Positions 1-60,016 are shown, counted from the whole stretch's first letter. The stretch is DNA of 62,790 nucleotides, filler included, from Asterionella formosa (GCA_002256025.1; 21 parts of 21 records of this genome joined end to end with filler, not necessarily neighbours in it); one strand, 5' to 3'. Translations and numbers: made by a program. The notes: generated by a model not told the origin, from the letters alone.

Positions 1-372
1 AGGCTTGGCGATGCTTTAGACTGCTTCTCTGAATCGTTATTCAAAGAATTGTGTGCTTCACCCTTGCACTAATTCACTTGTTTAACCTCGCGTGGTTGCT
101 CTTGTCTTCCCTTGTCTTAGCTGCCGACTCTTGGTTGTTCGATTCAACTCTAAAAGCTAGAACTTAATAGTCGCGTTGTCGCTATATTGAATTCTCAGCT
201 TCGACTCCTTCGAATTGCGTCGCGTGGTTTGTATCATCCGGTGCTCGCCTGATATACTAACTCCATCGCGTCCGTTCTTGTCCGTAATATCAAATACCGG
301 TATGTATGTAGCGAAAACAAAAGGCAATATATTTCAATCAGCCAACTTCCTGTACCAGGTAGCTTGTGCGTA

Positions 373-601
373 ACTGCAAGTTGCGGTTAAATACCAAACA
401 GTCAATTTAATTAATATCGGATAAAGGTAACTAAATAGTTAGCTTCAGCACAATTATCGGTACCGCAAAATTGCTGGTATGGTACAATACTCGGAGTAGC
501 AGTACATACATGCACTTTCCAGGGTACCTCCAAGATGCGGTTATAGTAGGATAAAGATAGCTAAACGTTTAGCTCCATCACAATTTACCGCAACTTGCTG
601 G
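373..601. mobile_element. Two adjacent copies (373-477, 527-601) of a ~100-bp MITE with TIR CCWGCAAGTTGCGGT and TA flanks
   Basis: ta-(a)ctgcaagttgcggtt...taccgcaaaattgctgg-ta and ta-cctccaagatgcggtt...taccgcaacttgctgg; shared internal ggataaagatagctaaa. Confidence 0.8.
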
Positions 602-736
602 AACTTGTACCGATGCAACGACATGCCGGTATAGTTATTTTACATACGACGTGCTACGACGCCCAATCACAACATCAGCTGAGGAAGTAAAAACTTCAAT
701 AAATTTGTTGTTGCAGTTAAACATCCCCACCAAGGC

Positions 737-2754
737 ATGACGGCGCCTCACGTCCTGCACATTGCGGGTTGGTCGTCATGTAAGTGAAATGATGCGTGAG
801 AAGAATTCAATCGGCAAAGATCGGTGCATAGGGACAAAACAAACTGGGAACGGGCCGCGCAGCAGACTTTGCACCGTTGACTTCATGGGATAAGCATGTG
901 TGCTCAACTCTCGCTTTCTTTGCTTTCATTTTTATCACAGGCGGATTCTATCGTAGGGCCGCCTCTGTGCTGTCATCCCTCAGCATTTTGTTTCCCGCAC
1001 AAATCAAGGTCGTTCAGCACGAATTCTCGGATCGCACAGACTTCCGTTCTTGGTTGATTGACGGCGGCTTCAGAGATGCCATGCACAATGACAAGGCAAA
1101 GTCGCACTCCTCCTCGCCGTTCGTCTGGTTTAGCGACGCATGTACTACCGAACCAAAGGTGGATGAGATATCTTCCTACCTCGGGGGTCATGACGATACA
1201 CTCGACTGGTGCCGCGGTTTTCTCTCCCCCACCGTCGCATCTGAAAACCCTGCTTCGATGATGGTAGACGATGGATATACCCAGGACCATAGCTATGACT
1301 ATGACTTGGTCGTCATTGGAGGGGGATCTGGTGGTATGGCGTCAGCCAAGGCTGCTGCTGAACTAGGAGCCAAGGTGGCTTGCTTGGACTTTGTCAAGCC
1401 CAGTCCGGCGGGAACAACATGGGGCCTGGGAGGCACCTGTGTCAATGTCGGCTGCATTCCGAAAAAGCTAATGCACCATGCATCCTTGTTGCGAGAAAGT
1501 ATACACGCCGACAGTGAATGCTTTGGTATTCATCATGCTACTGAAGATGGACAAGCAGCCTCGGATCTCAAGTGGCCGGATTTGGTTGAAAATATTCAAA
1601 ATCACATTCGTGGTCTCAACTTCAAGTACCGGGTGGCCTTTCGAGAGAAGAACGTTACATACCTGAACAAGTTGGCAGCATTCAAGGATGCACACACGAT
1701 TATAGCGACAGACAAAAAGGGCAAAGCGTCGGAAATTACATCAGCTCGTTTCTTGATTGCCACGGGTGGGCGACCCCTTCCACTTGATTGTGAAGGTGGA
1801 GAGTTGGCCATCTCTAGTGATGACATATTCAGTCGAGAGAAACCTCCAGGAAAAACCCTTTGTGTAGGAGCATCGTACATCGCTTTGGAGTGTGCTGGAT
1901 TCTGTGCTGGCTTTGGATATGACGTTACAGTTGCAGTTCGTTCCATTTTGTTGCGTGGGTTCGATCGAGAGTGTGCCGACAAAATTGGATTGTACATGGA
2001 AGACCACGGTGTCAAATTCAGGCGCGGTGTCCTTCCCAAGAAGCTAGAAAAAGTAGATAACGATCAGATCAAAGTGACTTTTACTGATGATTCAACGGAT
2101 ATCTATGATACAGTCTTGGTTGCAATTGGTCGTGTTGCCGATACGGATGCTCTGGGACTCCAGGCGATTGGTGTTGAGACCAACCCAACGAACAAGAAGA
2201 TAATTGCAAAGTACGAACAATCGTCATGTCCCAATGTGTATGCCGTCGGAGATGTCATGGAGGGATGTCCAGAGTTAACTCCAGTTGCCATTCAAGCCGG
2301 CCAATACCTGGCTAAACGGTTGTTTGGAGGTTCCACAGAACCCATGGACTATATCAATATCTGTACTACAGTATTCACTCCTATCGAATACTCTACTGTG
2401 GGATTATCTGAGGACGATGCCATTTCGAAGTACGGAAAAGAGAACGTCGACTGTTACATTCGTGAATTTATGCCACTAGAATGGAGCATGTCGCATGGGC
2501 GCGCTGGTCATATGGCGTTTGTCAAGGTCGTGACGGACAAGATGCCAGAAGAAAATGTTTTAGGGATTCACTACTTGGGACCCAATGCCGGTGAAGTTAT
2601 GCAGGGGTACGGAGTCTCCATGAAAAAGAAACTTAGGTTTGAATCCTTGAAGGACACCGTAGGTATTCACCCCACGTCCTCCGAGGAGATTGTCACTCTA
2701 GCTGTCAAGAAATCAAGTGGAGAGTCGGCTTCTGCCGGAGGATGCTGAGGCTAA
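737..2754 (+). CDS. TXNRD: High-Mr (animal-type) thioredoxin reductase, a selenoprotein with an N-terminal glutaredoxin-like domain (TGR-like). Exons 737-779 and 941-2754; Sec at TGA 2746-2748
   Basis: FAD motif GGGSGG, redox motif GGTCVNVGCIPKK and HPT..EE. The C-terminus reads GGA GGA TGC TGA GGC TAA = G-G-C-U-G-stop. ATG at 737, GTAAGT donor at 780 and pyrimidine-rich CACAG acceptor ending at 940 join in frame to give MTAPHVLHIAGWSSCGFYRRA. Confidence 0.93.
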
Positions 2755-2861
2755 GCCCTTTGACGCCGAAGTTGATCGTGCGTAATCACGAAAAATTTCG
2801 GCGTTAGAGGGCTCCGTCTGAAGAAATTCAGCGGTTTCGCTGCAACTGAGTTGATCCAGAG

Positions 2862-2939
2862 AATTCGTTTCGCTTCATGAGAATGAAGATCTCGCTCATT
2901 TTGTTGAGCTTGACCTGACATTGTGATTGCTGACGTTTC
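2862..2939 (+). promoter_or_regulatory. Candidate SECIS element with a non-canonical apical loop
   Basis: AUGAA (2883-2887) faces UGAC (2916-2919), giving a tandem G.A core. An imperfect 11-position upper helix pairs 2888-2898 with 2905-2915; lower helix UCAUGA/UUGUGA. It lies ~135 nt downstream of the Sec UGA and lacks the apical AA. Confidence 0.5.
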
Positions 2940-3073
2940 AGCTTTTTGTTTCTATCCACTTAATCTATCGTTCATAATCGACTTGATTCATATTTTTATT
3001 ATAATTTTAGTCTTCATTCCAATTTCCTGTGCATGCTTTCTGAATATTTAAAGAAAGAGTTTTAGCCGAAACG

Positions 3074-5689
3074 TCATGCAAAATAGCTGGTAACAGTCTC
3101 ACGGTCTCGTTCCAGTCGAGCTGCCCTGGTACGAATAGCCTCCAATGCTTGTGACAACCTACGTGTCGCTGATCCAGGAGGATTCTGTTCAAAGAAAGTC
3201 TCCACTTCATAGGCTTCCTCCAGTGTTCTCATGCCCCGGCACATCAAGCCGACGATTGGGCCCCACATGGGTCCTGAGGCAAACTTGGCCTTGATTTCCT
3301 CATATCGCCTTCTGAATAGTGACCAGCAAGCTATGCCACCTTCATCTGTGGACGACGAGAGCGAATTGAGTGGAAAACCAATATCCTGCAGGCGAACCTT
3401 GCCTGAGAAGAGAGCATAATCTAGCATTTCCTCGTGACGTGACAGGTCCTTGACACTGCCCAACACATCTAAACAGTTTCGCTGCTCTTCTGGAAAGGTA
3501 CTTGCTTCGAACATTAACTTTAATGCAGCAAAAGTGTAGGCCTCGTCGTGACGCATCGCCAATGCAAAGATGATGGACTGCAAATCGCCTGGAATCGCAA
3601 GTCCTTGATTTTCAAATGCACAGAAGCGTTGGAAACCTTCATAGCAGACGATTTCATCACCTGCCGCTGAAAGCACACGGATGATTGTTCCTCGAAGAGT
3701 CCCAGTTCTTGGACATTCTCCTTGCTTAGCATCCCATCCCAGTCTCTTCAAGTGACTGGAGAAGATCGTGGTCAAATAATTTTGAAATTTGGCGAAAAAT
3801 CCCTCTGAACGGTACAATGACGCTAAATTACAAAGATTCTCTGCCAACTCTTGCCATACGGCATATTCTGCTTCCTCGTGGTCACCAAAATCCTTAACAA
3901 AATCAAGCGAGTTTACAATGGGAGCATAACCAGATCGTCCAGCGGCAAAAGAATCAGAAATCAAACCCAGACGGTCAGTGGTGGAAAGAGGCCCAGAAGG
4001 ACTCATGGCACGCGCCAAGTTGTTCCACTGCTCATCGGTGTAGGCTACTCTATAGAAGCCAGATTGATCGACATTGAGCTTGAACCACTTGCCTTCGCTG
4101 GTCCACACCTGAATTTGTTCCAACAAACCTCGGGATTCATCTCCGGCTGGACCATGGATCACCCAAGGCCCCTGTACTTCGTCGGAACCTTCCACCAAGG
4201 CAGTTACAGGTATCGGCCACTGCTCCGAGTATTCACTTTCGTCTTTGCCTGGTCCACTGGCCAAAAACCGCGGTGTCAGAACGGTTGTCTCGGCTAGAAC
4301 TAAGATTGGAAATCCTGTTTGTGTTGTCCACGGAGTCATTAATTCCAACACTGGAACACCAGAAGCTTCTTGTAGTGCTTCCCACAACATGTGTGTTTCG
4401 GCATTTCCATATGCATGACGTTGCAAATATATCTGCATCCCAAGCATAAATTTATCGATGCCAATATACGTCGAAATCATTCGGACAAGACTTGCTCCCT
4501 TTGCATATGAAATAGCATCAAAGATTTCATTAATCTCATCCGAATGCGTGACTTTGACTTCGACTGGATGGGACGACTTCATACTGTCCAACGACATAGC
4601 CAGTCCATAGACTGATTGAACGAATTCGGTCCATGCATTCCACCCCGGAAAGATTTTGTCAATAGCCACAAACTCCATATACCGAGCCACACCTTCCTTC
4701 AACCACAATTGCGTCCAAAATTCCATTGTGACGAGATTACCGAACCACATATGGGCCAACTCATGACATACCGTTCGGGCAATGCCACGGAGTGTGGATT
4801 GTGACGTGCTATCAGTGACCAAAATCTTGGCTTCCCGATATGTGACAAGTCCCCAATTTTCCATAGCACCAGCAGCAAAATCTGGAACGGCTACAAGATC
4901 AGATTTTGACAGTGGATAAGGGACTTGAAACAACTTTTGGTACAAATCTAAGCATTTGACGGCAGTGTCCAAGCAGAATTGTCCTTGAGCCGCCTTCCCG
5001 GGGACAGTGTAAACCGTCGTTGCAATACCGTTCGAAATTGTGGAAATGGAATCTAGTTCTCCAACCACAATTGCCAATAGATAAGTACTCATCTTTGGAG
5101 TTGGCTGAAAGGTAATTGTCTTGTTTGTTCCTGTCGTGTGGATGGATGCTGGCGGAGTATTCGACAAACACGAGAGGGTTCTGGGAACGGTGACGGTGAG
5201 GCGAAAGACAGCCTTCAATGCCGGTTCGTCGAGACAAGGAAATGCCCTGCGAGCGTCGGTGGGTTCAAATTGAGTTGTGGCCATTGTGGTAAGGGACCCA
5301 TCCAAGGCCTTGTAAGTGGATCGGTAGAAGCCTCTCATCAGGTCGTTGAGGACACCGCGAAAGAAGATAGTCAGTATGTATTCCTTGCCTTGCGCCCAGG
5401 TGAATTCATCGAAGATTATCTCCACAGTCTGATTCTGTTTTTGGTATCGAAACTCGTTAGCCTGCTTGATGCTATCGTGATCGCTATTTCCCTGGCCTTT
5501 CAATGTAGCAGATACTAGGTATAAATCTAAGGCGTTGAGGGTAATGCTACTCCCAGTCGTTGCTAATGCCGTCAAATGAATAGAGACAACTCCGTCAAAT
5601 GCATGGTTTTCTAGATCAATCGTCGTGTATGACAAATCATAGAACGAGGGTTTGCCAATGGCCTGCAAGCGGCCGTTAGTAGATGGCAT
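3074..5689 (-). CDS. M1 family aminopeptidase (puromycin-sensitive aminopeptidase-like) with ERAP1-like C-terminal domain
   Basis: TQFEPTDARRAFPC, GAMENWGL, HELAH-x18-E zinc motif and FDAISYAKG; intact 871-aa ORF. Confidence 0.95.
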   Translation of the reverse strand: MPSTNGRLQAIGKPSFYDLSYTTIDLENHAFDGVVSIHLTALATTGSSITLNALDLYLVSATLKGQGNSDHDSIKQANEFRYQKQNQTVEIIFDEFTWAQGKEYILTIFFRGVLNDLMRGFYRSTYKALDGSLTTMATTQFEPTDARRAFPCLDEPALKAVFRLTVTVPRTLSCLSNTPPASIHTTGTNKTITFQPTPKMSTYLLAIVVGELDSISTISNGIATTVYTVPGKAAQGQFCLDTAVKCLDLYQKLFQVPYPLSKSDLVAVPDFAAGAMENWGLVTYREAKILVTDSTSQSTLRGIARTVCHELAHMWFGNLVTMEFWTQLWLKEGVARYMEFVAIDKIFPGWNAWTEFVQSVYGLAMSLDSMKSSHPVEVKVTHSDEINEIFDAISYAKGASLVRMISTYIGIDKFMLGMQIYLQRHAYGNAETHMLWEALQEASGVPVLELMTPWTTQTGFPILVLAETTVLTPRFLASGPGKDESEYSEQWPIPVTALVEGSDEVQGPWVIHGPAGDESRGLLEQIQVWTSEGKWFKLNVDQSGFYRVAYTDEQWNNLARAMSPSGPLSTTDRLGLISDSFAAGRSGYAPIVNSLDFVKDFGDHEEAEYAVWQELAENLCNLASLYRSEGFFAKFQNYLTTIFSSHLKRLGWDAKQGECPRTGTLRGTIIRVLSAAGDEIVCYEGFQRFCAFENQGLAIPGDLQSIIFALAMRHDEAYTFAALKLMFEASTFPEEQRNCLDVLGSVKDLSRHEEMLDYALFSGKVRLQDIGFPLNSLSSSTDEGGIACWSLFRRRYEEIKAKFASGPMWGPIVGLMCRGMRTLEEAYEVETFFEQNPPGSATRRLSQALEAIRTRAARLERDRETVTSYFA

Positions 5690-5990
5690 GGATGTTGGAA
5701 TTGTTGGCTTCTTTTATTATGTTGCATGAGAGAAAGCAAACTACCGGTATTTCATAGAGCTACTACAGTACCTAGTAAATAGGACAGAGGGTACTGCACA
5801 TATATTGTAAGCTATACGTGTGAAACATACCGGTAGACTGGTCTACAGTACAGGTATGTGTAATAAGTAGAACATCATTTGGCTGATATAGTACTCCGTG
5901 CGTAGAAAGCTACATTTTATTTGACAATTTGCTTTTGCTCACCACTTTAGAAGCAATTTTGGTCGAGGATGGGAAGCTACGTATGTACTA

Positions 5991-6080
5991 GAGAGGCGGT
6001 CATTTTGCTTAAATAGACAATTTAATCTATGATAAAGATAGCTAAATCTTTAATTAAGCAAAATTACCGCAACTTGCTGG
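5991..6080. mobile_element. MITE copy (same family)
   Basis: gcggtcattttgcttaaatagacaatt...gataaagatagctaaatc...aaaattaccgcaacttgctgg. Confidence 0.8.
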
Positions 6081-6280
6081 CATCGCCGGTATGCACATAT
6101 TGCTTGTGTTTCCTCGATTCTTAAAAAAAAAGGTACCAGTAACCTGGTACTAGAACTGGTATTGCCTTGCTACATATAAGATGTACTAATTCTTTTGATG
6201 TTATTCACGGTAAGCTATCATATTAGACTGTTTTGAATCGACCCGCCGCTCTGATTTGATACCACTCTATCCACGTCGTT

Positions 6281-7867
6281 ATGAACTGCGTCGTGGATCT
6301 AACAGAAGATGATACATCGCCGCCCCCATGGAATCCAATTGGAGCAGAGCTGAGCGCCGAAATTGTTGATTTGCTGGAAGATGACTATTGTGCCTCTGAA
6401 TCCACAACGATTCCTTCACCTGTTGCTGCTAGAGTACCCCAGCATGAAACGATTGCGATTGATGATGACAGTGAAGAAGAAGTAGATGGAAACATATCTG
6501 AGCGTCATCTTACTTCCTCGTTTTCGATCACGATTCGGCAAACAGGAACTGCATCAATGGACCGCAAACGCATACGGCAAAGCGATGAACAAGAACAAGC
6601 TAGAATAACATTGCGTCACGAGTGGAATAAATTACAAACCATGGCTTCATCCAGCACAGATACTATTCAGAGCGCAAATATCTGTGGCAACCAATGTGGT
6701 GGATCAGACACATCGTCACAGACACAGCGGAGCATAATAGAAGGGAGCAAGAAAGGCATTCATTTTTGTGTGACTAATGGCAAGCCGTCATCATCAGATA
6801 TTATCCAAAATGGCGAGAAAAGAAAGCGAAAAATGCCTGTAGGGGTTAAACCGAAGTCGAAAAGCGTTGGGACAGAAGACACCGACTCACTGTCAAAAGC
6901 GAACAAATTTGTTGATCCAGCACAGGAAGATTCAGTAAACATAGTGTCACTCGACAGTTACCGTTCCGTGGAAAGCCTAGCCAAGTCGAAGGCGAAGAAG
7001 GAATTGCAAGAGAACAATATCAAGGATTTCGAATTTCCCGAGGCACGAGATCACTCAATGAAGGCTGCGGCAAGCCTGTCAGGGTTGAAGTTACCAGCAA
7101 CCTTCCACGAGAGCAGCACCAATGCATTCATAGATAATATCGATGATGTCAAGACACATCACAAATCCGTGCAACCTGCAGAACCCCTGCCAGCTTCGAA
7201 GATATCAGAACAGGGGCAAGAGAATATAATGCACACCCCTAAAAAAGTATTGGATTTGACAGGAGACCCCGACCTATCCAAGCCACCCGATGTTACCGAG
7301 GAGCCTAATTTTATACTGATTGAATCTAGTGACGAGGACGAACCAGAAAATGTTTGCAGTGAGCAACAAAGACCGAATCATCTTAACTACATTCGAGGAA
7401 AGCTATATCCCAAGAGGACACAAACCTTCAGATTACATTGGAATATTCGATCCAAGTCAGACACATCCAACCCAACGAAGTTTCAAAAGACAAACGACTA
7501 CAACTATGAAAAGTCACGAAATGAAGCACTTGCAGAGCAGGAGCGCTTGCTGACCAGCGCTCATGCGCGCATGCGAAGAGAAAAGGAGCGCATCCATGTC
7601 CTTCATCACAACCAAAGCTTTCCACTGGATGGTCCCACATTTACGAGGCCAATATCTGACTTGACCAAGCTCAGTCGAGATCATTTCAAGTGGCTGGACC
7701 TGCAGGCACGAATGGGATTGCCGAAGGATGCAACTCATACTATGATCAAGAGCCAATATCGCAAACTAGCGCTAGCATATCATCCTGACAAGTGCACACT
7801 AGCAGATGCTTCGACAAGATTTCAAGCCATAACGGAAGCGTATCATAAATTAATTGGAAAGGAATGA
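6281..7867 (+). CDS. Largely disordered protein with a C-terminal DnaJ (J) domain
   Basis: C-terminal MGLPKDAT...IKSQYRKLALAYHPDK...FQAITEAYHKL. The acidic low-complexity N-terminus carries SIM-like motifs. Confidence 0.85.
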   Translation: MNCVVDLTEDDTSPPPWNPIGAELSAEIVDLLEDDYCASESTTIPSPVAARVPQHETIAIDDDSEEEVDGNISERHLTSSFSITIRQTGTASMDRKRIRQSDEQEQARITLRHEWNKLQTMASSSTDTIQSANICGNQCGGSDTSSQTQRSIIEGSKKGIHFCVTNGKPSSSDIIQNGEKRKRKMPVGVKPKSKSVGTEDTDSLSKANKFVDPAQEDSVNIVSLDSYRSVESLAKSKAKKELQENNIKDFEFPEARDHSMKAAASLSGLKLPATFHESSTNAFIDNIDDVKTHHKSVQPAEPLPASKISEQGQENIMHTPKKVLDLTGDPDLSKPPDVTEEPNFILIESSDEDEPENVCSEQQRPNHLNYIRGKLYPKRTQTFRLHWNIRSKSDTSNPTKFQKTNDYNYEKSRNEALAEQERLLTSAHARMRREKERIHVLHHNQSFPLDGPTFTRPISDLTKLSRDHFKWLDLQARMGLPKDATHTMIKSQYRKLALAYHPDKCTLADASTRFQAITEAYHKLIGKE

Positions 7868-8307
7868 GCTTTTCGTGTTTGGTCCACTTGAAAGTCATTG
7901 AGACGAATCTTGTTTTGATGCCTGCTATTGTATGCTGCATTCTTTGATGTTGACCATGCTCGCCTCATGACTTCGGTTGGTGAGTTGGTTGTGATGAAGC
8001 ACACAATTGAAGTGTTCCGAACTTTGGTGGACATTTTTTGGAATAAAAGCGCCTTTCAAGGCCTTGGTCGCTACATGTTGTTTGTATTGTCATGAAGGGT
8101 GAAGTGTCGACTTTTACTCGGCGGGGCACAAGTTGCTTGTTTCCAAAAATTCCAATTTGCAGCGCTTTCAAAATTACCAGTAGGGCAGCTTCCCATCAGA
8201 CTCCAACAAGCACCTGAATCAACAGGGTGCCGTATCGCAATGTGAGTCATCATAACTTAAACGACAAACAATTGTGAAATGCTAACAGTCGATTCTATTC
8301 TATGTGG

Positions 8308-9312
8308 TTAGTCTGTGCTTTCTACCCTTCGCTGCTCATTGACTCTATTGATTGCGGCGTAAATATTGTCTGCAGTCCAATCGTCTTTCGTCAGCGCATC
8401 TTCAAGGGAAAATTGAGCCTGTTGCGTTCTCGTCAAGTGAGTCATTGTCGCGACAGAATCCAACTTGTACCCGATGTCCCGTATTAGCGATCGAATATAC
8501 GTTCCTCCTCCGCACTCGATGTTGATATCAAAGCTAGGTAACGTAGCGTCAACTAGTTCAAGCTTGTAAACAGTAACTTTCCGGGATTCAATCTCAAGAT
8601 CCTCTGCCGTCTTCCCCTCTCTCCCCGCTTCATACAATTTCTTTCCGTTCTTCTTAATCGCAGAAAATATTGGCGGGATTTGCTGAATGTCGCCGGTGAA
8701 CAAAGGAAGACATTTCTGAACAGCATCGACGGTGATATGATCTGTCGGCATTCTCTTGGTAACATTTCCTGACGGAGACATGTCAAGCGTTGTCGTTTCG
8801 AAACCAAATTCTCCACGTGCGAAATACTTTTTCGAGCCAGACAAGTAGGATTGCAGTTCTTTGGTGCCCTTTCCAATCCCCACCACAAGCACTCCGGTGG
8901 CAAGCGGGTCTAACGTGCCGCCGTGTCCAGCTCGAATGATGCGGCTTTTATTCTTCCTCGAAGTCACTTTGGTTGTAGTTCCTCCTCTACGGCGAGTATC
9001 TCCTTCCAACAACCCTCGAATGTAACTCACCACATCGCTAGAAGTCCACTCCAGGGGCTTTACCACGGAAAATATTCCTTCTGCTCTATAGAGAGCAACA
9101 TCGTCAGATAAATTAATTTGATCATCGGAAGAAGTGGAGCTATGTAACGCAATTGCTAGCTTGAAACCACGGCAACGTGGTTTGCCAGCAAAGGAAAAAC
9201 CCAGAGCACCTCGCGATAGACCGGCTTGTAGCAGCGCCATGAAATTGATCACTCGCAGTAGTGGCGAGATTCGGAGTGAGGCCGGTGACGACTTTGCGGC
9301 AAGCAAGAACAT
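8308..9312 (-). CDS. truB: tRNA pseudouridine(55) synthase TruB, probably organelle-targeted (start could be the ATG at 9240)
   Basis: KPLEWTS, GHGGTLDPLATGVL, PPIFSAIKKNGKKLYE, CGGGTYIRSL and LTRT motifs; N-terminal extension. Confidence 0.93.
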   Translation of the reverse strand: MFLLAAKSSPASLRISPLLRVINFMALLQAGLSRGALGFSFAGKPRCRGFKLAIALHSSTSSDDQINLSDDVALYRAEGIFSVVKPLEWTSSDVVSYIRGLLEGDTRRRGGTTTKVTSRKNKSRIIRAGHGGTLDPLATGVLVVGIGKGTKELQSYLSGSKKYFARGEFGFETTTLDMSPSGNVTKRMPTDHITVDAVQKCLPLFTGDIQQIPPIFSAIKKNGKKLYEAGREGKTAEDLEIESRKVTVYKLELVDATLPSFDINIECGGGTYIRSLIRDIGYKLDSVATMTHLTRTQQAQFSLEDALTKDDWTADNIYAAINRVNEQRRVESTD

Positions 9313-10133
9313 AAGTGTAACAATCCGTCTCTATACTCTTGGAATTGCAAATGAGAATAGTTTAATTAGACGACGGCAATCTTCATTTTCGTCACCGTCG
9401 CCCATGATTACTTTCCTTGTTTTCTTTCTACGTAACATGTATGTTGTACTACATTACTACTACCGGTATGCTGTAGCTACCGACACTCTTCCTCCTGCTA
9501 CATAATTTTTTTGATCATATCCACTTATTTTATCACGATGGGTTTAATGTTTAATGTTGATGGTGCCAATACTTGATAGGATATGGGCAGTTTTTAATTT
9601 AGACCACCAACCAGTATTGTCCTTAACTCTTCTCATGATCACGTTGTCCATCAATTTCGAATCTGACCCTCACAATTAAAATTGAATCTATGGTTCCTTG
9701 TACCAGGGTATATACCAGGGGTGGATTCTGTGAGGTAACCATTCACTAAAGACAACAATTTTACTATTCTGGACCTCGGAGTTGTCAACCTATCCTGTCT
9801 CCTTCAAGCGGCCGACAGGAAAATACTACCTTAGTGATACTACCTACAATTTTGCTTACCTTCAAAATATGTGCAGGTACTAACTAAGTAAGGGAAATAT
9901 CATAGTACCCTCGTTGTCATCTTTGTGTTTCCGGGGTCCGCAACCTCACTTACGGTAAAGCATGGCAATTCTGCCATTGTAAATAGTCTTCACACAGCCA
10001 TGACAATTTCTCATGGCAGACAACAACATTAGTCACTTATTGATACAACATTTCAGGGCTATGCGCTATGTAGTTATATATTCTCTCATATTGTAATAGG
10101 TTTTTAGTTGTCACTCTTTCACTTATGAAATTC

Positions 10134-10892
10134 TCAAGCCACAAGTCCGGCAGCGAGATAGGAGCCATGCACCACAATAGCACAAAGACCAATCAAATTC
10201 GTCAAGCTCGACATCCCGTGAAACTTACCAAAGTCTCCAGCGAGCTTTTTGTATTCCTTACTTTCCTTGCCTCCAGGCAATTCTTCCAATTCATATCTGT
10301 CAAACATGATTTTGGAAGATCGAGGTTCCAAGTAGAATTGGTTGAGAAGAGTCATCACAAAAGCCAACCCAACAGCCCTGGTGGCATTTGCACCCAATTT
10401 TAGCGTAGGGAGGGTAATCAATTGCAGCAACAAGCTTATAGAGCACAACCCAAAGTACTTGGGAAAGAGTTTGCTCTGAAGTCTGCCGAACGTTTGACGG
10501 GGAAGATTCTTGTACATGGTAATACCAGCCACAAATGTCGTGTACACAACTGTTCCGAAATATGTTGCAAAACTCAACAGGTGAATGGTGGCACCAGCTT
10601 TGGTGGACAGGAACGACGAGGCACGGAAATTCTGGGCAAATGCAAGTGCCCCAAGAATGCTGCCGAAGCGAAAGACAGGCGTGTTCCAGATGCGACCAGG
10701 AGTCCAATTGGAAGGGTCCCAGCCGGAGAGAGTCTCAACGGGCTTCGCAGTTTGAAACAAAAAAGATTTGCTAGCAGGAATGGTTGAAGCACGCTTTGCA
10801 ATAGCAGAAGGCGAAGTATGAAAAGCCAAAGTACCGGCGGCCAATACTAGGCACGCCAATAAGTTGACAGTAGCAAGAGTGATTAGCTTCAT
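10134..10892 (-). CDS. DUF4149/TMEM205-like membrane protein with a bipartite plastid-type presequence
   Basis: TFVAGITMYKNLPRQTFGRLQSKLFPKYF and FGKFHGMSSLTNL. The likely start MKLITLATVNLLACLVLAAGTLA-F resembles a signal peptide plus AF motif; the upstream part of the listed ORF is probably non-coding. Confidence 0.85.
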   Translation of the reverse strand: MKLITLATVNLLACLVLAAGTLAFHTSPSAIAKRASTIPASKSFLFQTAKPVETLSGWDPSNWTPGRIWNTPVFRFGSILGALAFAQNFRASSFLSTKAGATIHLLSFATYFGTVVYTTFVAGITMYKNLPRQTFGRLQSKLFPKYFGLCSISLLLQLITLPTLKLGANATRAVGLAFVMTLLNQFYLEPRSSKIMFDRYELEELPGGKESKEYKKLAGDFGKFHGMSSLTNLIGLCAIVVHGSYLAAGLVA

Positions 10893-11426
10893 GGGAAAAG
10901 AATTACAATGAACCACAACCAAAGTAGGAAATAATGGCAACTGGAAAATGCTATGCAGCCGACAAGGCAGCGTGTGGCGATTCAATGGGGAGCGATGCGA
11001 AGCCAATTTTCTTTCGGTGACATCATATGATAGAGGATCGCTCTTCGAGGATATCTTCGGATCGGAGATTAAATTGTTGAAATGACCGCAACTAGCTCTG
11101 TTATACTGTACAAGGTTCTCGGAGTACCTGGTAGGCACGTAGACCGACGGTTGGTTGATGGCCGATGCTGTAGGATGATGGCAATTGATACGGTAGCAGG
11201 TCCAGGTACCCTGGTACGGATTAATTAATACCTAGCTAATTGTGTATGTCGGGAATGTCCGGTATACCGATTCTACAGGGTATCTATAAGCGCTGGTATT
11301 CCACCAGGTAATTGTTTGAAAAAAACCCCAGGGGCAACTACTAAATCGGGGGATAAAAATAGAATAACTATTGAAGATCCCCATAAATTGTAACAACAAT
11401 AATACATTTCTGTCAATCTGGGTCCT

Positions 11427-18898: not shown

Positions 18899-19140
18899 AT
18901 CACAATGTAGCACGTCCTTTATATTTATTTGTTTGTTCAACTCGTTCTCAACTCGTTGTCACCAAATTCGCATCTGATACATTCCCCTGGCGACCCGACG
19001 ACGATTGTAATTGGTCAAGGAACCATCAAGCAGATGGGAGCCTGGCATCATTACAGTAAACGTTCCCGGAACGAAATCCCGGACGATTGGCACAGCCTTT
19101 GACAAGTTGGAAAGTTACATGTGGTACCCATGTACACTAC

Positions 19141-46980: not shown

Positions 46981-47472
46981 TACCGGTACCAGGGTTTTTT
47001 GTAGTTTACCTTTGTACACAGTGCTAGTTGACTGCTAGTACACTAGCTTTCACTACGGTCTTAAAAGGTTGCACTGGGGGTTGAATTTTTTGCATGTACC
47101 ACCCTGGTACCGGTATACTATACTATCATGTATACCGGTACCGGTACCGGTGGTAGTAGTATCACGTATCGTATCTCGTACTTTCAAAAAACCAAAAAAA
47201 TTATACATGAGCAATCCTAAGTAGGGGGGGGGGAAGTTTTGCACCCTTCCCGTATCTTCTCTTGCTAGCAGGAGCTTTTGCTTCTTGTACCGCTCAAAGG
47301 AGTACACCGTTTCTACTGACGGTCCGTATTCTACCTGGTTGTCATCATGCCGGATTATCATTAAGTGGTGGANNNNNNNNNNNNNNNNNNNNNNNNNNNN
47401 NNNNNNNNNNNNNNNNTTAATTAATTAANNNNNNNNNNNNNNNNNNNNNNNNNNNNNNNNNNNNNNNNNNNN

Positions 47473-48758: not shown

Positions 48759-49540
48759 CTACACTTGGATACAGTCATTGCTCGACTTAGGGGTATGATC
48801 TATATTCAGATATGGTTGTAAGGACCTCATTTCTGGAGAGAGGTGGCAGTTTTCCTTCTGGGAATTGTAGCGATTCAAAAAGGGGGCCATGAAGCTTTAA
48901 AAAATTTTACTTGAGATAACTGCCACTTCTCTGCTGAAGTTAACTCCTGACATTATATGGTGCATATCTGTCTATTTTAATCTTCATGAAACCCTGAAGA
49001 TGTCAAGCAACCCTTCCTCCAAAAAGTCGATCTGATTGGCGTTTTCAACAGTCACCAAAATTTGGAATCGGAAATTGTAGGTGCAAAAACGTTCTCGTAG
49101 ACTTAAAGTCTTGCGTAGGTATGTTTTGCTGCATAATTCTCTGTCCGAAAAGACTCCAGGGTAAGTTCCCAGGTCACTACACATATTATGATTGGTTAAA
49201 TTGAATTTACTCACCTTCTCCAGATTGGCTGGAGTATCCCGATCTTCTAAAATCACGTCAGCTACACTTGAACCACACATATTAGATGTACTGTATACCG
49301 GTAGGTAAAATCAGTACTAGTTTCATCCTGTTTTCCATCTTCATGAACCAAGATTATGTACTACCGGTATACCAGTACTCCAGTGCTGATTTATGTATAT
49401 GCCTTTGGGCGTAGAGTAATAATATTAAAACTACATGCAGCAACGTAGATTAAATAAAACCGTATAAACACAAACCATGAGTATATATAGATATTGGCAT
49501 ACTCCTGATTTATGTGTTTTTGGCATGGAGTAAAATCATG
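48759..49540. repeat. Second copy of the internal region of the 30984-32140 element
   Basis: Long collinear similarity to ~31120-31922 (for example ttgaatttactcacct.ctccagattggctg.agtat and tactagtttcatcctgt). Confidence 0.85.
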
Positions 49541-51330
49541 CAAAAGTAAGCAAGTCTTGCTAACTTCGCTTTAATGTCATCAAACTCAAAATCTTGCTTT
49601 CTCTTTTTCCGAACGAAGTGATGAAACAACCAATAGCTAATGAACTGTTCTTTGAATATTCAACTGCTACCACTTAAAACTGTACGCCACCGACTTTTGA
49701 ATTGAAAGCCACCGCTAAACGGAGTAAACGCACGGTTTGAACTTAGTTTGCAAGATACATTAATTTTTGTCATGAAGGCGGAGTTGTCCAGATTTATGAA
49801 GCAAGTAAACATTTATGTACTTGTATTGTTGCATTGTGTAAGTTTTAAATACTTCTTATGGCCCAAAGGTTGCTGTCGATGCAAAATTGCGAAAAATGGA
49901 TATCGTCACGTTTACTCTATCGAGCTGGCATCGCCTTTTCTATNNNNNNNNNNNNNNNNNNNNNNNNNNNNNNNNNNNNNNNNNNNNTTAATTAATTAAN
50001 NNNNNNNNNNNNNNNNNNNNNNNNNNNNNNNNNNNNNNNNNNNCCCTCCACTGGATCTGCTGGTTTCATTGAAGAAATTCCTTTGAAAAAATTCAAGAAA
50101 TTACTGAGTTCACATGCTGCTGCTTGCTTGATACATTCCCAAAATGCCAAAGCGTGACATTAGTCGCCATCTGATATAATTTATGTAACCCTAACCCTAT
50201 AGGTGTGTGTAGTTGAGCAGGATCGTTCATGTGTTACTCCCTCGTTCCAGTATAGTTGCACAAACGCTCAGCATTGACTAACCCAGATCGATAGAAGTCC
50301 TTCAAAGTAGCCCTCTGTAGAAGGAATATACATTGTCTTTGTGAGACGATGCAGGCCATGGGTACGTCGGTTAGATTTGTGTATTTAGGCAAGTATAAAA
50401 CTAAATAGCAGTACGTGTGCATTTTTTTGGGCTATTGATTTTGTTGCCCAGTGTACAGACCTGTATCCATGCTTTTAATATCAGCTATTACTACCTAAGA
50501 GATTCAGCTAAATAAACTAACAAACATGCATTTCTGAGGAAAAATTGTTTTGCAGGCGTCGAATAATATAGTTAACATTTTGTGCATGCCCAGATTTATG
50601 ACAAGCTGGCCATCCATGTCAATGGTCTCATTAGCCTCCCTTTTGAGGTTGCAAATCGAGCAATCAGTGATTTATTGTCACTTTTCTGGTGTTAATGATT
50701 CTTCTTATGTCTGTTGACTAACAATGGGTTAACAAATAGGGGGGTCTGGAGCAAGCATTCCAATTGGGACCAAAATGCACCAAAAAATCGAGGTCAGGTT
50801 CACCTTGTTTGTTGTGCACCACCACTGATGTATGGCACGATTTCTACATACGATGTGTAAAAAAGTCTGCCATGTTTACCCGACTGGTATTATGTACAGG
50901 TCCTCACGTAATAAGAAAGTAAGCAACATGTGCAGCTTGCTCTCAGTACCTGGTACCTGGTACCAGGTACCAGGTGCATGTGTTGCAAACCGATGCATTG
51001 TGATAATTTTGTCAAGCAATTCCTGCTCCAGCTATCGTCTTGCCATTCGGGTACTTCTAAGTAATTTTTAGTCTCTAAGTAATTTTAATTTAAGGGCAAT
51101 ATGGGGCACATCGAATTTTTCGGCAATAAAATTGCCGATTTTAGCATGACAACCAGAAGAACGGTAATATGCATAGAGATGGTACAACAAGCGTAAAACA
51201 CACGAGAATGATTGTAACATGCAACATCAANNNNNNNNNNNNNNNNNNNNNNNNNNNNNNNNNNNNNNNNNNNNTTAATTAATTAANNNNNNNNNNNNNN
51301 NNNNNNNNNNNNNNNNNNNNNNNNNNNNNN

Positions 51331-52255
51331 ACGTCCTCCAGATAAGGTCACTATGTCATTTCATAACAAAACCACTCAATTTGGTTATCATGGTTTACCA
51401 ATATTGATTCCCCTACAACTTCATCAATATTCAATCAACACACCATGTTGAACGTCTAAATTCATCGCCTCATAGTATTCAATAAGATAATATCAATATG
51501 TCATTCATACCACGAGGAACGTCGTCCAGATGATGTCACTATATGATCTGATAGCAAAACAACACAATTTGGTAATGATGGTTTACCAATACTGATTCCC
51601 CTATAACTCTATCAATATTCAATCAACACACAATGTTAGACGTCTCAATTCATGGGCTCATAGTATTGAATAAGGGACTACCAATATATCATTTATACAA
51701 CAAGAAACATTTTCCAGATGAGGTCATTATGTCATTTCATAACAAAACCACACAATTTGGTTATGATGGTTTACCAATATTGATTCCCCTATAACTTCAT
51801 CAATAGTCAATCAACACACCATGTTGAACAGCTCAATTCATCGGCACTGAGTATAGAATAAGGTACCATTAATATATAATGAATACAACAAGGAACATCC
51901 TCGAGATGAGGACACTATGTCATTTCATAACAAAACCACACCATTTCGTAATGATGGTTTACCAATACTGATTCACCTATAACTCCATCAACATTCAACC
52001 AACAAATCATCATGAACCGTACTTTTTTACTGGCACAAAGTATAGAATAAGATACTATCATTATATCATTCATACAACCAGCAAGGATCGTTTTCCAGAT
52101 GATATCAATATGATATCATTTCATAACAAAACCACACCATTTGGCTATGATGGTTTCCCTTTACTGATTCCTCTATAACTCCATCAATATTCAAGTAACG
52201 CATTATGTTGAATGTCTCAGTTCACTGGCACATAGTATAGAGTAAGGTACTATTA
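51331..52255. repeat. AT-rich tandem satellite, ~188-bp unit, about 5 diverged copies
   Basis: Unit starts at 51331, 51519, 51707, 51895 and ~52086; conserved tcatttcataacaaaaccac and tggtttaccaata.tgattc. Confidence 0.92.
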
Positions 52256-53447
52256 ATTTATCATTATGCAAAAAGTACCATCTTCATGATTAGGTGTGTT
52301 GGTATACAATTCTATATCAATGCCGCACACGCACCTAATCTTTGCTACTGACTCTTCTGTATCTCTATCAATAGCTATGCATCCAATATATGATGTGGAA
52401 TGATTCAATTTACTGGAAGATATTGTACAATAAGTTACTATCACTATGCAAGTCACTGGAAGATAGTATACAATAAGTTACTATCAATAGCTATATCATT
52501 CATGCAATTAGCACANNNNNNNNNNNNNNNNNNNNNNNNNNNNNNNNNNNNNNNNNNNNTTAATTAATTAANNNNNNNNNNNNNNNNNNNNNNNNNNNNN
52601 NNNNNNNNNNNNNNNTGCCATTCCAATGGTGATGCTGCCAGTACTCCCAGTAACATTACACATCATATTCTATGATCCGAGCTCAGCAGACCACCAACTA
52701 TGGGTTGACTGGCAGCGCAGCAGCAACAACCACAAGAACCAATACTAAAACACTTTACTTCAATGGATGGCTGTATTGAAGAAAAAATAAATGAAATTAA
52801 GAAAGCGAAACTTCCAACGAAAGAACAAAAGCCAGACACAAAGGTGGTAAAGGATGCAGTACTGCAGGATGATTGCGGTATTTTTCTTGCATGGAGCTTT
52901 CACGGTGGTTCAAGCCCGTATCAGGGGATAGCAAAGTATTGGTATCACACAGGGTGTCGCCCTGTGTCATATGATCAGTACATCAGCACGAAAAACTGCG
53001 ACGTTCCAAATCTGGAGTACCGGTAACGAAATCACGACCGAAACAAAGCAACCCTGGACACGTCGAAGGAAAAATTAACCACGGAGAACGCAGCAATGTC
53101 CTTTTACATATACCGGTACTTATAGGATTAGTCATACTCTGTGCTACAGTTACATGCCCAGCCCTAGAAGGGCTGGATGCTCAATAGGGATGACGCCTAG
53201 AGGCGTTGTCCCTTTTCCCTAACCCTAACAGTTTTGGTGTGTGGCACGAAGGCTAGCAGCAGAAAGAAGATAACAATACTAGTGGTATAGTAGGTAAGTC
53301 CTACGTAAGAGGAACCCGTCAGACGGGAAGGAGTACGAGACCTTTCAACATCACTATCATCTTCACTTTTAACACAAAAAACACGTTTCACTTGAACAAG
53401 AACAAAAAAGAAGTCGCTCGTCAATCACAATAAAGACGACATTCACA

Positions 53448-53800: not shown

Positions 53801-54810
53801 NNNNNNNNNNNNNNNNNNNNNNNNNNNNNNNNNNNNNNNNNNNNTTAATTAATTAANNNNNNNNNNNNNNNNNNNNNNNNNNNNNNNNNNNNNNNNNNNN
53901 GAGAGCAAGAAAAATACCGTAGACCATGCATACCGGTATGTATAGACAATATTTGTTAGTAAAAGTGTACCTGCTTGTATTTTGACAGTATGTACAGTAC
54001 TATTTATACTGATGATCATTATTACTACCGATATGTATTTAGAGATAATTTTGATGTGATTCGTTCTTGACACTTCGATAGAATTCGTCAAGCCGATGAT
54101 GCAAGCAGCATGGTAACGGTACCTGGTACCAGGTACCCTATCTTACCGGTCCGTATCGTAGTTTCATTTATGCTGTGTGGTGTACTGAGTATTTTCCTTG
54201 TTCCCTGTGGTATTGAGAACCGGTATGTAGCCATTATAAAGGCAAATTTTAATTAGTCGTTGGGGAAGAATGTTTCCTTGAGCCGAACACGTCACCACCT
54301 AACAACAAGATGTGACACTGAGTCATCTACATGCCATACTGTGCCTCTGTATCTTGTATACCGCCAGGATTTAAAAAATAAAGCAACGGAATGTATACTT
54401 CACAATCATTACAATTTGCAGGTATTAATTAGTATTGGACAAAAGAATTTTGATGCGAAACACATAATTGACTTGACTTTGACGATCACGTCCGTTTCTG
54501 CCATGATCCTTCCTTCCTGTGTAAGACATGCAGTCTAGTCAAGGTACAAATATGATCATTTAGATCGAAGTAATGAACTGGTTGCAGACGGATAAACAAC
54601 ACTTCTTTTAAAGTTGACAAGCGAAAAAATGACGAACAAGTTGTGTATACGTTTCACTCTGGCGTGAATACCGCGGTTCCTTTCTTTGCTACCTGTACCT
54701 ACATAATCTGATGTGAAGCGTTTAAAGAAAAGTATTGACTATACTAAAAAGCCTACTTTCAGTATTGGCACTTATGCCATGGCTGACCTAATTGAAGTCA
54801 TGAAGGCTAC

Positions 54811-57121: not shown

Positions 57122-57230
57122 CCGGCGGCAAGTTGCGGTAATTTTGCTGAACTAAGGATTTACCGGTAGCTGGTTTTATCCCATATCGAATTGTTTATTT
57201 ACCGGTAAGCCAAATCACCGCATCTTGTTG
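57122..57230. mobile_element. MITE copy carrying two internal CCGGTA insertions
   Basis: cggcaagttgcggtaattttgctga...caaatcaccgcatcttg; TACCGGTA at 57161-57168 and 57200-57207. Confidence 0.85.
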
Positions 57231-57291
57231 TTGTACCTTCAACCAGCGGTCATTTTCACCCTAACCCTAACCTTTTGAGTAATTACTAGTT

Positions 57292-57653
57292 ATGTCGATA
57301 AATAATCCAGGTACAGAGCTTCAGAACTTGCCTTCGAATGCCAACAGCAAGGTGCCAACTGATGAAACAGGAGGTCCTACTGCCACTTTAATTTCGTCTC
57401 ATATTGATGCAATTCTTTCAAGGATGCAAATAGATGAGCAGATCCCTTTCATTCAAGAACGAGGTCTCGTGAGGCTTCTGAACTTTGCTGTGAATGAGAA
57501 CAACATGGTGACAATTGCTGAAGCATGAGATATCACTGAGATTCTGTCTGTGATGACATATCATTCCTCCAACACTGATGTGCAACACTTTGGTTGTGCA
57601 GCACTTTCGAACTTGGCAAATAATAATGACAAGAACAGAGTGATGATTGCTGA
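57292..57653 (+). pseudogene. Armadillo-repeat gene fragment with an in-frame stop
   Basis: HIDAILSRM...IQERG...NENNMVTIAEA*DITEILSVM..HSSNTDVQHFGCAALSNLANNNDKNRVMIA. Confidence 0.65.
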
Positions 57654-60016
57654 NNNNNNNNNNNNNNNNNNNNNNNNNNNNNNNNNNNNNNNNNNNNTTA
57701 ATTAATTAANNNNNNNNNNNNNNNNNNNNNNNNNNNNNNNNNNNNNNNNNNNNATCTTCACAGCTTCCATCAAGTCAGCAATGACATCATTCTTCTTCAA
57801 CGTGACATAAACTGGCAATAGTCCTGCGTTTCCAAGAAACAACTGGAACCAAACCTTCATTGTTTTCTAACTGATGGTGGTGGGTACCTGGTTGGGAGTA
57901 CAAGACAATGGAAGTGAGAGGAGAGGAGAGGAGAGGAGGAGAACCTTCTGTCAATCATTCAACAAGAGTGAGGAATGTTGTGACTGAAACAATTCTACTA
58001 CCGGCGGTATTTGCTTTCGTTGCTGTCATGGTACTCTTGTCATCGTGGACTTCTACTAAAGGCCCTGGTATAGTGCGTATGACCTCTTCTTGCGAGCCAG
58101 CATTCTACTGAGTGGCCTAAGGCTGGTTGCAACCTGAAGATCAATATAGTAGGATACGTAGGCCTTAGTATAGATTTTCTTTTGCATTAAATATTAGGAG
58201 TAAAAATTGTGACGCACCAAAAAAATGATTCAACTTCTTTGGTATTATAGTATAAGTACCGGTACCATGGTAATGCACTCCGCTCATTTCCCTGGGATTT
58301 CCGGGAAAGTCCGAATATTGCGAATATTTGTCCGTAAATATTTAATCAAACCAGCCATATGTGATCAAACCCTAAAAATTGCTTATCGTACATACATGTA
58401 ATGGGACATACTGGTACTAATAAAGTATTGCAAGCATTTTGTATCATATATATAGGTTACTACTGGTAATGAATTTTTAACTAAGGCACTCCTTGCTGAT
58501 GTCATATTGTCGCTGCACCACATTGCACCAACATAGACCTACTGGGACTTACTACCGGTAAATCAAAAATATTTATTACTCTGGGGTATCATGATAAACC
58601 CTGACATAGATCACCACCCCTACCTCCAAACCAAACCACCAACTGAAACATGGTCATATGCATATGAATATGGCGACATATGACTGTTCTGGCTGGTACC
58701 GAACCAGGTACCGTGTGATGTCGGCAAGATAGTCTACCGAGGTATTTATTATGGTCCTCTTGTCCTTGTCATGATGATTTTATTAGTATATTATTGTACA
58801 CCCTTAGAGCATCGCCACCGCATCGACCAAATACCAAAGCCAATTGCAGTTGAAAATATCAATACACGTCACTTGGTTGAGAAATATTTTATCAATAGTC
58901 GAATTTTTCATATTTTTTCCCACCGCATCGACCAAATCCTANNNNNNNNNNNNNNNNNNNNNNNNNNNNNNNNNNNNNNNNNNNNTTAATTAATTAANNN
59001 NNNNNNNNNNNNNNNNNNNNNNNNNNNNNNNNNNNNNNNNNACTTCAGTACATTAGGTGAACAGAGGGAATTGCTTAGCGGTTAAGTATGTTGTCTTTGA
59101 TCTGAAAGTGTGGTTTGGATCCCGCAATTTTTTGAGAAGCAATTGTTGGGTTCGACTCCCACACTCCTTACCATCCCGCATAGTAGTCTTGCCTGGGGTA
59201 CAAAAAAGTAGTGGGTTGCCCCTGTACACGCAGCTTGTGCTGCCTTCCTAGGTGGTCGGAGTTTCCCCTAACGCTGTGACTAGTAAGATGATCACCTTTC
59301 GCAAAAGATGGTTGGGGACTCACCTACTATGGTAACAAAACTAGGGAAGCACTCAGTCTTGTCAGCAGGCTGTGCTGTGAAATCCCACATGTAACTCTGT
59401 GGTCTTAGAAAGCGCGTTACAACTGAGCTTCAATTTTACCATTTGACTTATCTCTGTAAATGTAAAATCAAAATAATTTAGACTAATGGAAATAATCAAT
59501 GTGGACTACTGATACATAATACTGGTGCATGCAACAGCACAGTGCCTTCTTCCCCAGTCCCCAGAACCACACCATCCTCCTGTGTCCAGCTGTAAATGTC
59601 AATTGTGCCTACTACCAGTATAAAAGCGAGTAGGAAAACGTGTTGTTGGAAGCTTGTGCCAGGGGTTGAAAGGGCCGAAACCGTTAAATATCCCAATGTG
59701 CTAACATAACCAGTTCATTCGATGATATGGAGTTTTAAAATAAATATTGAGCCGATGTACCGACACTAATTGGCAAAAATAAAATGTATTATATATATAT
59801 TTAATTCAGCTATGGATATAAACAGACCACCGTAGTTTACTGCTGGCTGAGTAACACAGACCGTAGGGTAACAAACCCCCCGCCAACCGAGGAACCAATT
59901 GCTTTGAAACTCATCCTCAAATCTCCACTAAACGATAGCTTCTCATAGGTATCGCGTTGAAACAAGATATATGTAGAGAGTGTCTAGTACACATTTATAT
60001 ATTTGTTCATTGCAAC

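Follow-up and report, generated by a model that had tools for sequence, protein, structure and literature searches.

The most frequent 8-mer in a sample of the genome of Asterionella formosa (GCA_002256025.1) is the palindrome TACCGGTA, that is, TA-CCGG-TA. It belongs to a small family of units of the form TA-x-TA, typified by TA-CC(W)GG-TA (W being A or T), which lie outside coding sequence, appear to arise by insertion at TA dinucleotides and chain into mosaic arrays. We put at about one half the probability that these units are excision footprints of a TA-duplicating cut-and-paste element, the best candidate donor being a resident MITE family (miniature inverted-repeat transposable elements) with ends CCAG...CTGG. 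The window (the whole stretch of 62,790 nucleotides) is composed of 21 pieces joined through N44-TTAATTAATTAA-N44 spacers, two of ~19 kb (1-19140 and 24385-43514) and 19 of ~1185 bp; 61,030 bases were analysed.

The main expectation for TA-x-TA was a dinucleotide (first-order Markov) model. For x = CCGG, 35 copies are observed and 0.27 expected; the corresponding figures are 15 and 0.18 for CCAGG (TACCAGGTA), 16 and 0.05 for CCTGG (TACCTGGTA), 4 and 0.02 for CCCTGG (TACCCTGGTA), 2 and 0.03 for CCAGGG (TACCAGGGTA), 7 and 0.69 for CCAG and 7 and 0.71 for CTGG (TACCAGTA and TACTGGTA), 3 and 0.65 for CAGG (TACAGGTA) and 1 and 0.75 for CCTG (TACCTGTA). A third-order model trained on the window itself gives expectations of 1.86 for CCGG, 0.63 for CCAGG and 0.51 for CCTGG. 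The 35 copies of TACCGGTA are therefore to be read against 0.3-1.9 expected, and the 31 copies of TACCWGGTA against fewer than 1.2. Enrichment is 20- to 300-fold for CCGG, CCWGG and CCCTGG/CCAGGG, ~10-fold for CCAG and CTGG, and weak or absent for CAGG and CCTG. Among 7- to 10-mers, those that follow in frequency are almost without exception fragments of GGTACC(W)GGTACC. Control palindromes placed between TAs (GGCC, CGCG, GATC, CATG and CTAG) are not enriched. The excess is tied to the flanking dinucleotide: TACCGG is followed by TA in 35 of 45 cases, and no other pair of flanks is nearly as common as TA on both sides, for CCGG (35 of 126) or for CCWGG (31 of 134). Since CCAG and CTGG are both CpG-transition products of CCGG, these two units are not necessarily separate types, and may simply be such products.

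The 90 units fall into 49 clusters, 30 of them single units, and at least one unit is present in 13 of the 21 pieces. Stop-to-stop open reading frames (ORFs) of at least 150 amino acids (aa) occupy 26,249 of the 61,030 bases (43%) but hold 12 of 86 units. Seven of these 12 precede the first ATG of two Pfam-supported ORFs (Tim17-like and DUF4149); the other five lie in one 169-aa ORF with no family match even at E <= 1. The density of TACCGGTA in non-ORF DNA is even, at 0.84 and 0.97 per kb in the two gene-rich pieces and 1.03 in the 19 small ones. An initial annotation of this DNA had described the units as abundant, had listed twelve clusters of them and had placed them in non-coding DNA alone. 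All twelve clusters are present at their coordinates, k-mer counts put TACCGGTA and TACCWGGTA far above Markov expectation, and no unit falls in supported coding sequence; the observation of abundant TA-CC(W)GG-TA units is thus confirmed and strong.

That units arise by insertion is seen most directly in a MITE copy on the + strand at 57125-57233. Here two 6-bp CCGGTA blocks turn ..ATT-TA-GCT.. and ..ATT-TA-AGC.. into TACCGGTA, at 57161-57168 and 57200-57207 (alignment A4). Both blocks are absent from all three other copies compared: those at 30911 and 6080 (reverse strand), and one in L014, an unrelated 1-kb metagenome contig. At both events the insert-free homologues carry a single TA (n = 2). 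Among ~19 distinct indels of at least 3 bp between all paralogue pairs of the window, these two are the only clean 6-bp events outside arrays and alignment edges; three more lie inside arrays, and the remainder are ordinary and diverse.

A second comparison shows different units at one aligned site. The paralogues at 31127-31922 and 48768-49540 are 75% identical; the first carries TA-CCAGCAGG-TA at 31657-31668, and the aligned site in the second (49296-49303) reads TA-CCGG-TA. CCAGCAGG can be divided into CCAG and CAGG, which coincide exactly with the termini of the element at 30911-32167, and the pair of units is as expected from two independent excisions at that site. Further along, the anchors that enclose a 55-bp array at 31741-31795 are separated by 21 bp in the paralogue (49362-49382), where the interval 49296-49377 holds two TACCGGTA and one TACCAGTA.

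The resident MITE was recognised by a core, GCAAGTTGCGG, that occurs eight times in the 61 kb (0.62 expected). Aligned copies are ~85-105 bp long, and their ends read CCAGCAAGTTGCGG or, less often, CCTG, CCTC or CCTT. TA flanks five of seven scored ends, the other two being flanked by TT and TG. Copies with their ends defined lie at 372-476 (ends (A)CTGCAAGTTGCGG ... CCGCAAAATTGCTGG, TA on both sides), at 521-602 (ends CCTCCAAGATGCGG ... CCGCAACTTGCTGG, left flank TA, right flank AA) and on the - strand at 5990-6080, whose 23 terminal bases are identical to those of the copy at 30911. The latter, at 30911-32167 (+ strand), is a 1257-bp CCWGCAAGTTGCGG element with TA on both sides, whose inverted-repeat arms match at 13 of 14 bases. 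It is a MITE with a nested ~800-bp repeat, which recurs at 48768-49540 (75% identical), and contig joints that skip ~1160-1206 bases at 30911-32167 give the short MITE form. ORFs across the CCWGCAAGTTGCGG MITE have no family match in Pfam. At 30817-32401 the summed depth of public contigs exceeds that of the unique bins nearby by a factor of hundreds. With terminal inverted repeats, small size, no coding capacity, TA duplication and high copy number, the CCWGCAAGTTGCGG element fits, as judged from its sequence, the structural definition of a Stowaway-like MITE. Beside the copy with two inserts lies a short interstitial telomere-like run, (ACCCTA) x2.5, at 57258-57272.

Public contigs extend this picture of the MITE ends. 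In run X1, 152 contig ends leave the right arm, with the consensus ...CTTGCAGG / ...CAAAATGACCGCAACTTGCAGG followed by TA (agreement 0.82); the numbers of contig ends at the right arm in four runs are 152, 25, 34 and 36. Contigs entering the left arm have TA in common and tend to have ..CCTGG before it (agreement ~0.4). A search of metagenome contigs with a 15-base MITE end returned 119 loci, of which L014 alone is a true copy; the other matches were set aside as chance on the basis of their GC content, motif content and extended match. Viral contigs searched for the MITE arm and for the array gave no match, and neither did genome contigs searched with a 22-base MITE arm.

MITE ends and units tend to lie together. 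A unit stands within 15 bp of a MITE end in three of nine cases, against 5.7% of random non-coding positions. At 295-361, TACCGGTA (295-302) and TACCAGGTA (353-361) lie 11 bp from a MITE end, and the arrays at 32168-32422 start from the very TA that borders the MITE end at 32167 and include a second, decayed MITE end (32294-32316).

The composition of the units was compared with the element ends by an end-retention matrix, in which each cell is TA, i bases of the left end, j bases of the right end and TA, with i and j running from 0 to 4. Where the ends are taken as CCAG...CTGG, enrichment is seen in cells 2+2 (35 units), 3+2 (15), 2+3 (16), 2+4 (4) and 4+2 (2). Cells 3+1/4+0 and 1+3/0+4 hold seven units each, and 3+3 (CCATGG) occurs once. 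Every enriched unit can therefore be written as i+j bases of CCAG...CTGG. The longest forms also discriminate between possible ends: CC+CTGG and CCAG+GG (the plus sign marking the junction) are seen six times, and the mirror forms CCCAGG and CCTGGG, which are specific to CCTG...CAGG ends, not once each. Addition of a random C to CCWGG would yield 6:0 with p ~0.016.

These observations suggest the following course of events. An element would insert at TA and duplicate it; TA stands at most MITE ends, presumably as the product of such target duplication. Staggered cuts would then excise the element and leave both TAs with 2-4 terminal bases on each flank, by analogy with mariner and Stowaway elements, whose excision keeps both TA copies plus a short element-end sequence according to the available text of PMC4561436. 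End joining would give TA-CC+GG-TA, TA-CCA+GG-TA, TA-CC+TGG-TA, TA-CC+CTGG-TA and, rarely, TA-CCAG+CAGG-TA; the joining chemistry is conjectural, and the match of the inner unit bases to the MITE termini is observed. CCAG and CTGG units would be either 3+1/4+0 scars or CpG-transition products of CCGG. Scars would outnumber elements because the element moves without copying itself, and would build up where they are tolerated, that is, outside coding sequence, from which the units are indeed excluded. Scars hit again more often than by chance, or extended by a further local process, would become mosaic arrays, and an excess of chaining is observed. An autonomous partner encoded outside the window would move the MITE.

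Part of what the initial annotation had proposed about origin is retained on this account. It had read the units as insertions anchored at TA, and two clean CCGGTA inserts in one MITE copy, with none in three others, bear this out; it had derived their inner bases from the ends of a TA-flanked MITE, and these bases are what CCAG...CTGG ends would leave, with CCCTGG/CCAGGG at six and the mirror forms at none. Its wider interpretation, that of Tc1/mariner-type excision, stands as regards TA-anchored insertion, non-coding confinement and MITE-end bases; past occupancy of these sites by an element and membership of the Tc1/mariner family are suppositions. Its suggestion that arrays amplify themselves, each event making a new TA, proved insufficient, with simulated re-use yielding 2-7 neighbour pairs against 22 observed.

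Several findings weigh against excision footprints as the origin of the units. No site was found that is occupied by an element in one copy or strain and scarred in another, either by self-comparison or among public contigs, in which indels at units are not resolved. No Tc1/mariner-type (DD34E/DD34D) transposase was matched in Pfam by any of 195 ORFs of at least 55 aa, an absence that is weak evidence given that 61 kb of the genome were sampled. Classic one-end mariner scars are not enriched (TA-CCA-TA, 5 against 3.4 expected; TA-TGG-TA, 4 against 3.6), and TA is missing at three of 12 MITE ends read by eye. Non-CpG one-mismatch derivatives of TACCGGTA are few (17 against 7.4 expected, beside 35 intact copies), which means that the units are either young or under selection. 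Solitary occurrence differs sharply between types, at 18 of 35 for CCGG and one of 31 for CCWGG (p 9e-6), and a single process with a single repair spectrum would not predict this. Finally, 22 pairs of neighbouring units share a TA, and random re-use of TAs, newly made ones included, produces a mean of 2.1-6.6 such pairs and a maximum of 8-16 in 2000 simulations. The flanks of chains start with CC in 24% of cases, against 5% at other TAs. The excess of chaining, the clustering of CCWGG, the CC flanks and the adjacency to MITE ends are compatible with a preference for GG-TA / TA-CC as target or with a second process acting locally. To these points must be added two facts from oomycetes, given below with the regulatory alternative that they favour.

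The identity of the enzyme bears on the same question. The sole matches to cut-and-paste DDE transposases are fragments of DDE_Tnp_4 (PIF/Harbinger-type), at 45129-45419 (-) and 47964-48152 (+) in two small pieces. PIF/Harbinger, with its 3-bp TWA duplication, was considered as the family of the MITE and rejected: the third base after the element end is C in the 152-contig consensus, and the shared flank is TA only. Some PIF-related groups (ISL2EU) make 2-bp duplications, and the superfamily is thus not fixed. For Tourist-like MITEs of PIF/Harbinger, excision is reported to be precise (available text of PMC4561436), a further point against footprints as the origin of the units.

An alternative absent from the initial annotation is that the solitary TACCGGTA palindromes are selected cis-regulatory sites for a homodimeric factor, for example a MYB-related one, and that the CCWGG arrays are a related or separate by-product. 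For the solitary 8-mers the oomycete literature makes this a serious contender, although as an account of the origin of the units we think it unlikely. Units are found in non-coding DNA only, many of them 37-230 bp upstream of ATGs (for example at 5742, 9461, 32506 and 36335), and the scarcity of non-CpG one-mismatch derivatives is what selection would produce. Predicted promoter motifs of Phytophthora infestans include the identical 8-mer, M94 = TACCGGTA, and its sibling M93 = TACATGTA, which occurs 4150 times in promoters (PMC3597505, as far as its available text goes). The sibling is a validated MYB-related site, being bound by PsMyb37 in P. sojae (available text of PMC11134190). It is these two facts that count against footprints as well as for regulation. 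Seidl et al., in the part of PMC3520976 available, note that taCATGta is a Tc1 footprint in C. elegans and reject such an origin for Phytophthora TACATGTA on account of its conservation and abundance; the idea was dismissed there in 2012, apparently without a test of insertions and deletions. Both TACATGTA, the most abundant Phytophthora promoter palindrome, and TACCGGTA are of the form TA-NN+NN-TA, which is that expected of Tc1/mariner scars.

The Asterionella data themselves sit poorly with regulation as the origin. New sites have appeared by exact 6-bp insertion at TA, twice in one MITE copy, rather than by substitution; gene-rich pieces have the same density as the others (0.84-1.03 per kb); units are found inside repeats; and chained heptamers with common TAs are not the architecture of binding sites. 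TACATGTA is not enriched in the window (2 copies against 0.99 expected), and M93 and M94 are not among the six motifs tested according to the available text of PMC3597505. The oomycete motifs resemble the present case in that M94 is the identical 8-mer and both it and M93 (also motif-1 or AM-20, TACATGTA) are palindromes of the type TA-NNNN-TA that occur in great numbers upstream of genes in another stramenopile, with footprint against binding site already debated for TACATGTA in the available literature. They differ in that they are treated as binding sites, validated for TACATGTA, and the available parts of these sources yielded no evidence of TA insertion or chaining, whereas the window has both insertions and arrays. 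Footprint and regulatory origins are not exclusive: scars could later be read as sites.

A further possibility is that the arrays are a GGTACC(W) micro- or minisatellite that grows by replication slippage and quasi-palindrome strand-switching, the solitary units being seeds or decayed arrays. We regard this as distinctly improbable as a full account. Tandem Repeats Finder does call period-6/7 arrays in the window, most of the short-period tandem repeats there are of GGTACC(W) type, and the excess of chaining requires some local process. Some runs are homogeneous: that at 22154 is of type AAA, and L014 has three successive CCTGG. Moreover, (TACCWGG)n runs of at least three units occur at 84 loci (L120-L203) in prokaryote genomes and metagenome-assembled genomes of many phyla, against ~0.07 by chance on our own estimate, which implies that the heptamer is able to expand by slippage. 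These prokaryote arrays have the same unit and period as those of the window, but they are homogeneous in 69 of 84 loci and come without dispersed TACCGGTA, whereas the window arrays are mosaics of 6- and 7-bp units.

The contrast between the two sets of arrays can be put in numbers. Neighbouring units in the window are no more alike than chance, with identical neighbours in six of 22 pairs (chance 26%; permutation p 0.45). CCWGG neighbour pairs are the same in five cases and different in five, against 150 same and 18 different in the prokaryote arrays (Fisher p 0.004). Dispersed TACCGGTA is scarce at the prokaryote loci (9 copies in 627,194 bases) and frequent here (35 in 61,030). Slippage would not mix 6-mer and 7-mer units or leave 30 of 49 clusters as single units; it does not explain insertion of CCGGTA at an isolated TA and does not predict CCCTGG/CCAGGG at six with CCCAGG/CCTGGG at none. 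Other motifs scarcely expand into microsatellites in the window. It may add copies, but leaves solitary inserts and mosaics unexplained. The prokaryote heptamer arrays often lie beside arrays of other heptamers, and several genomes have 3-6 such loci. A few array contigs labelled Rhizobium have ~40% GC and may be mis-binned.

It is very unlikely, in our estimation, that the units stem from TA-directed breakage and repair other than transposon excision, such as cleavage by a site-specific nuclease followed by templated or palindromic fill-in. Such a process would account for the finding of palindromic inserts at TA where no element is present and for the lack of a matching transposase among the 195 ORFs, and the opening of hAT hairpins is known to give palindromic additions (available text of PMC4561436). 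However, it needs an enzyme not otherwise known, and leaves unexplained why the added bases are the termini of a TA-flanked MITE and why MITE copies adjoin units. Nor do the hAT palindromes offer a close parallel: they copy flanking DNA that varies from site to site, whereas the inserts in the window are constant. We give next to no credence to an assembly, adapter or linker artefact, for although GGTACC is a common cloning site and the window is a composite of short contigs, contigs of runs from four studies contain the same arrays without gaps, the arrangement recurs in the unrelated contig L014, and both unique sequence and diverged paralogues have units embedded in them.

The reality of the arrays rests on public assemblies of four runs from four studies, compared at 90% likeness; contigs break at arrays, and joints, many of which at this likeness stem from repeats or from other organisms, were not used as evidence of excision. 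X1 record 1 covers 32148-32416 without gaps and with a single difference; X2 record 14, covering 35442-36169, shows none. Loose contig ends, 26-62 in number, are found at 36146/36163/36169 and 39602/39621 (agreement 0.34-0.40). In each run dozens of contigs have an array in common and then split into unrelated flanks, from which it follows that such arrays are present at many loci. L014 carries two TACCGGTA and four TACCWGGTA 3' of a stop codon, adjoining its full MITE copy. Two length differences were recorded, their positions within the span not being resolved: +7 in X2 record 9 (32147-32425) and -6 in X7 record 26 (33187-34201).

If the units are excision footprints, they can be placed among known systems. 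Footprints of mariner and Stowaway elements, for instance in Osmar/Stowaway yeast assays, likewise keep both TAs with a few end bases between them, and their inserts are made at TA and are harmful in coding DNA (both in the available text of PMC4561436); the units of the window are also non-coding. Unlike those cases, the putative scar is here the top 8-mer, at ~1 per kb of non-coding DNA, and its arrays dominate the short tandem repeats; in addition, the 195 ORFs include no transposase of Tc1/mariner type, nor are one-end scars in excess. The canonical Sleeping Beauty footprint, TA-C(A/T)G-TA, is formally parallel to TA-CC(A/T)GG-TA. Cyanobacterial HIP1 provides another palindromic 8-mer that is the most frequent word of its genome, as is TACCGGTA here. 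HIP1 is frequent inside genes and spreads by substitution; the present units, in contrast, are absent from supported coding sequence and originate by insertion. Microsatellite-associated MITEs, such as those of pineapple, also link short tandem repeats to MITE copies, but there the repeat is part of the element according to the available text of PMC8449440, whereas here the unit is TA plus element termini and occurs far from any element as well.

Excision footprints are well known. The open-access literature that was searched yielded no report of a genome whose commonest 8-mer is a footprint, with chains of it forming the leading short tandem repeat; PMC5953449 uses the word 'footprints' in a loose sense and does not bear on the matter. 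If the units are true footprints, non-coding DNA here bears a transposon scar roughly every kb; these scars, more numerous than the elements, would be a record from which past jumps can be counted. Excision, and not insertion alone, could then be among the chief sources of indels in promoter regions and of newly formed low-complexity DNA. The same reading would raise again the question of where the most abundant promoter palindromes of oomycete pathogens came from, a footprint origin having been set aside for them. A far-reaching version, which we offer as speculation and consider improbable, is that excision of TA transposons in stramenopiles writes palindromic 8-mers (TACCGGTA here; TACATGTA and TACCGGTA in oomycetes) that are later read by homodimeric MYB-related factors. 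Footprints would then be a mass source of promoter elements and preferred targets in turn, and self-amplifying arrays the main source of new short tandem repeats.

The remaining arrays and solitary units are distributed as follows. Two TACCGGTA and one TACAGGTA lie at 5742-5856, in the intergenic region from which the M1 peptidase and DnaJ-domain ORFs diverge, and TACCTGGTA and TACCCTGGTA at 11125-11216, upstream of the first ATG of the DUF4149 ORF. The largest pair of arrays, at 21944-22184, has 10 + 4 core units of several types, and degenerate units in between. The chain CCGG-CCTGG-CCAG is found at 33734-33754, and two arrays of three and five units stand at 36146-36342, upstream of the lycopene cyclase ORF. 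The chain CCGG-CCAGG-CCAGG at 39598-39619 has Ty3/gypsy-type ORFs downstream, and summed contig depth jumps in the bin that contains it (39376-39692). Four TACCGGTA at 46981-47146 begin directly after the Peptidase_M3 ORF; CCTGG-CCTGG-CCAGG lies at 50947-50969 and CCTGG-CCAGG at 54120-54135.

The long ORFs of the window are those of eukaryotic housekeeping genes, for example an ERAP1-type M1 peptidase, a Tim17-family protein, TruB and a plant-type lycopene cyclase, together with Ty3/gypsy-type reverse transcriptase/RNase H (Pfam). For the lycopene cyclase the closest Atlas clusters are mostly from Bacillariophyta. A 9.5-kb stretch of the sample is present in 20 public runs from 16 studies, mostly labelled as freshwater or lake metagenomes. 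The Ty3/gypsy-type retroelement lies within 39376-43514, with matches to RVT_1 and RT_RNaseH at 41603-42901. Two small pieces, 20527-21712 and 23099-24284, are 98% identical without gaps and open in one frame throughout (395 aa); this repeated ORF has no Pfam match even at E <= 1 and no usable Atlas match, and appears to be an unclassified high-copy ORF that may belong to a large mobile element. A 188-bp satellite occupies 51331-52265 in 4.9 copies of ~80% identity, without any TA-CC(W)GG-TA unit. One copy of this satellite (51331-52295) has a 4-bp CCAG insertion that creates CCAGCAAGG, which resembles the MITE terminus and is probably a coincidence.

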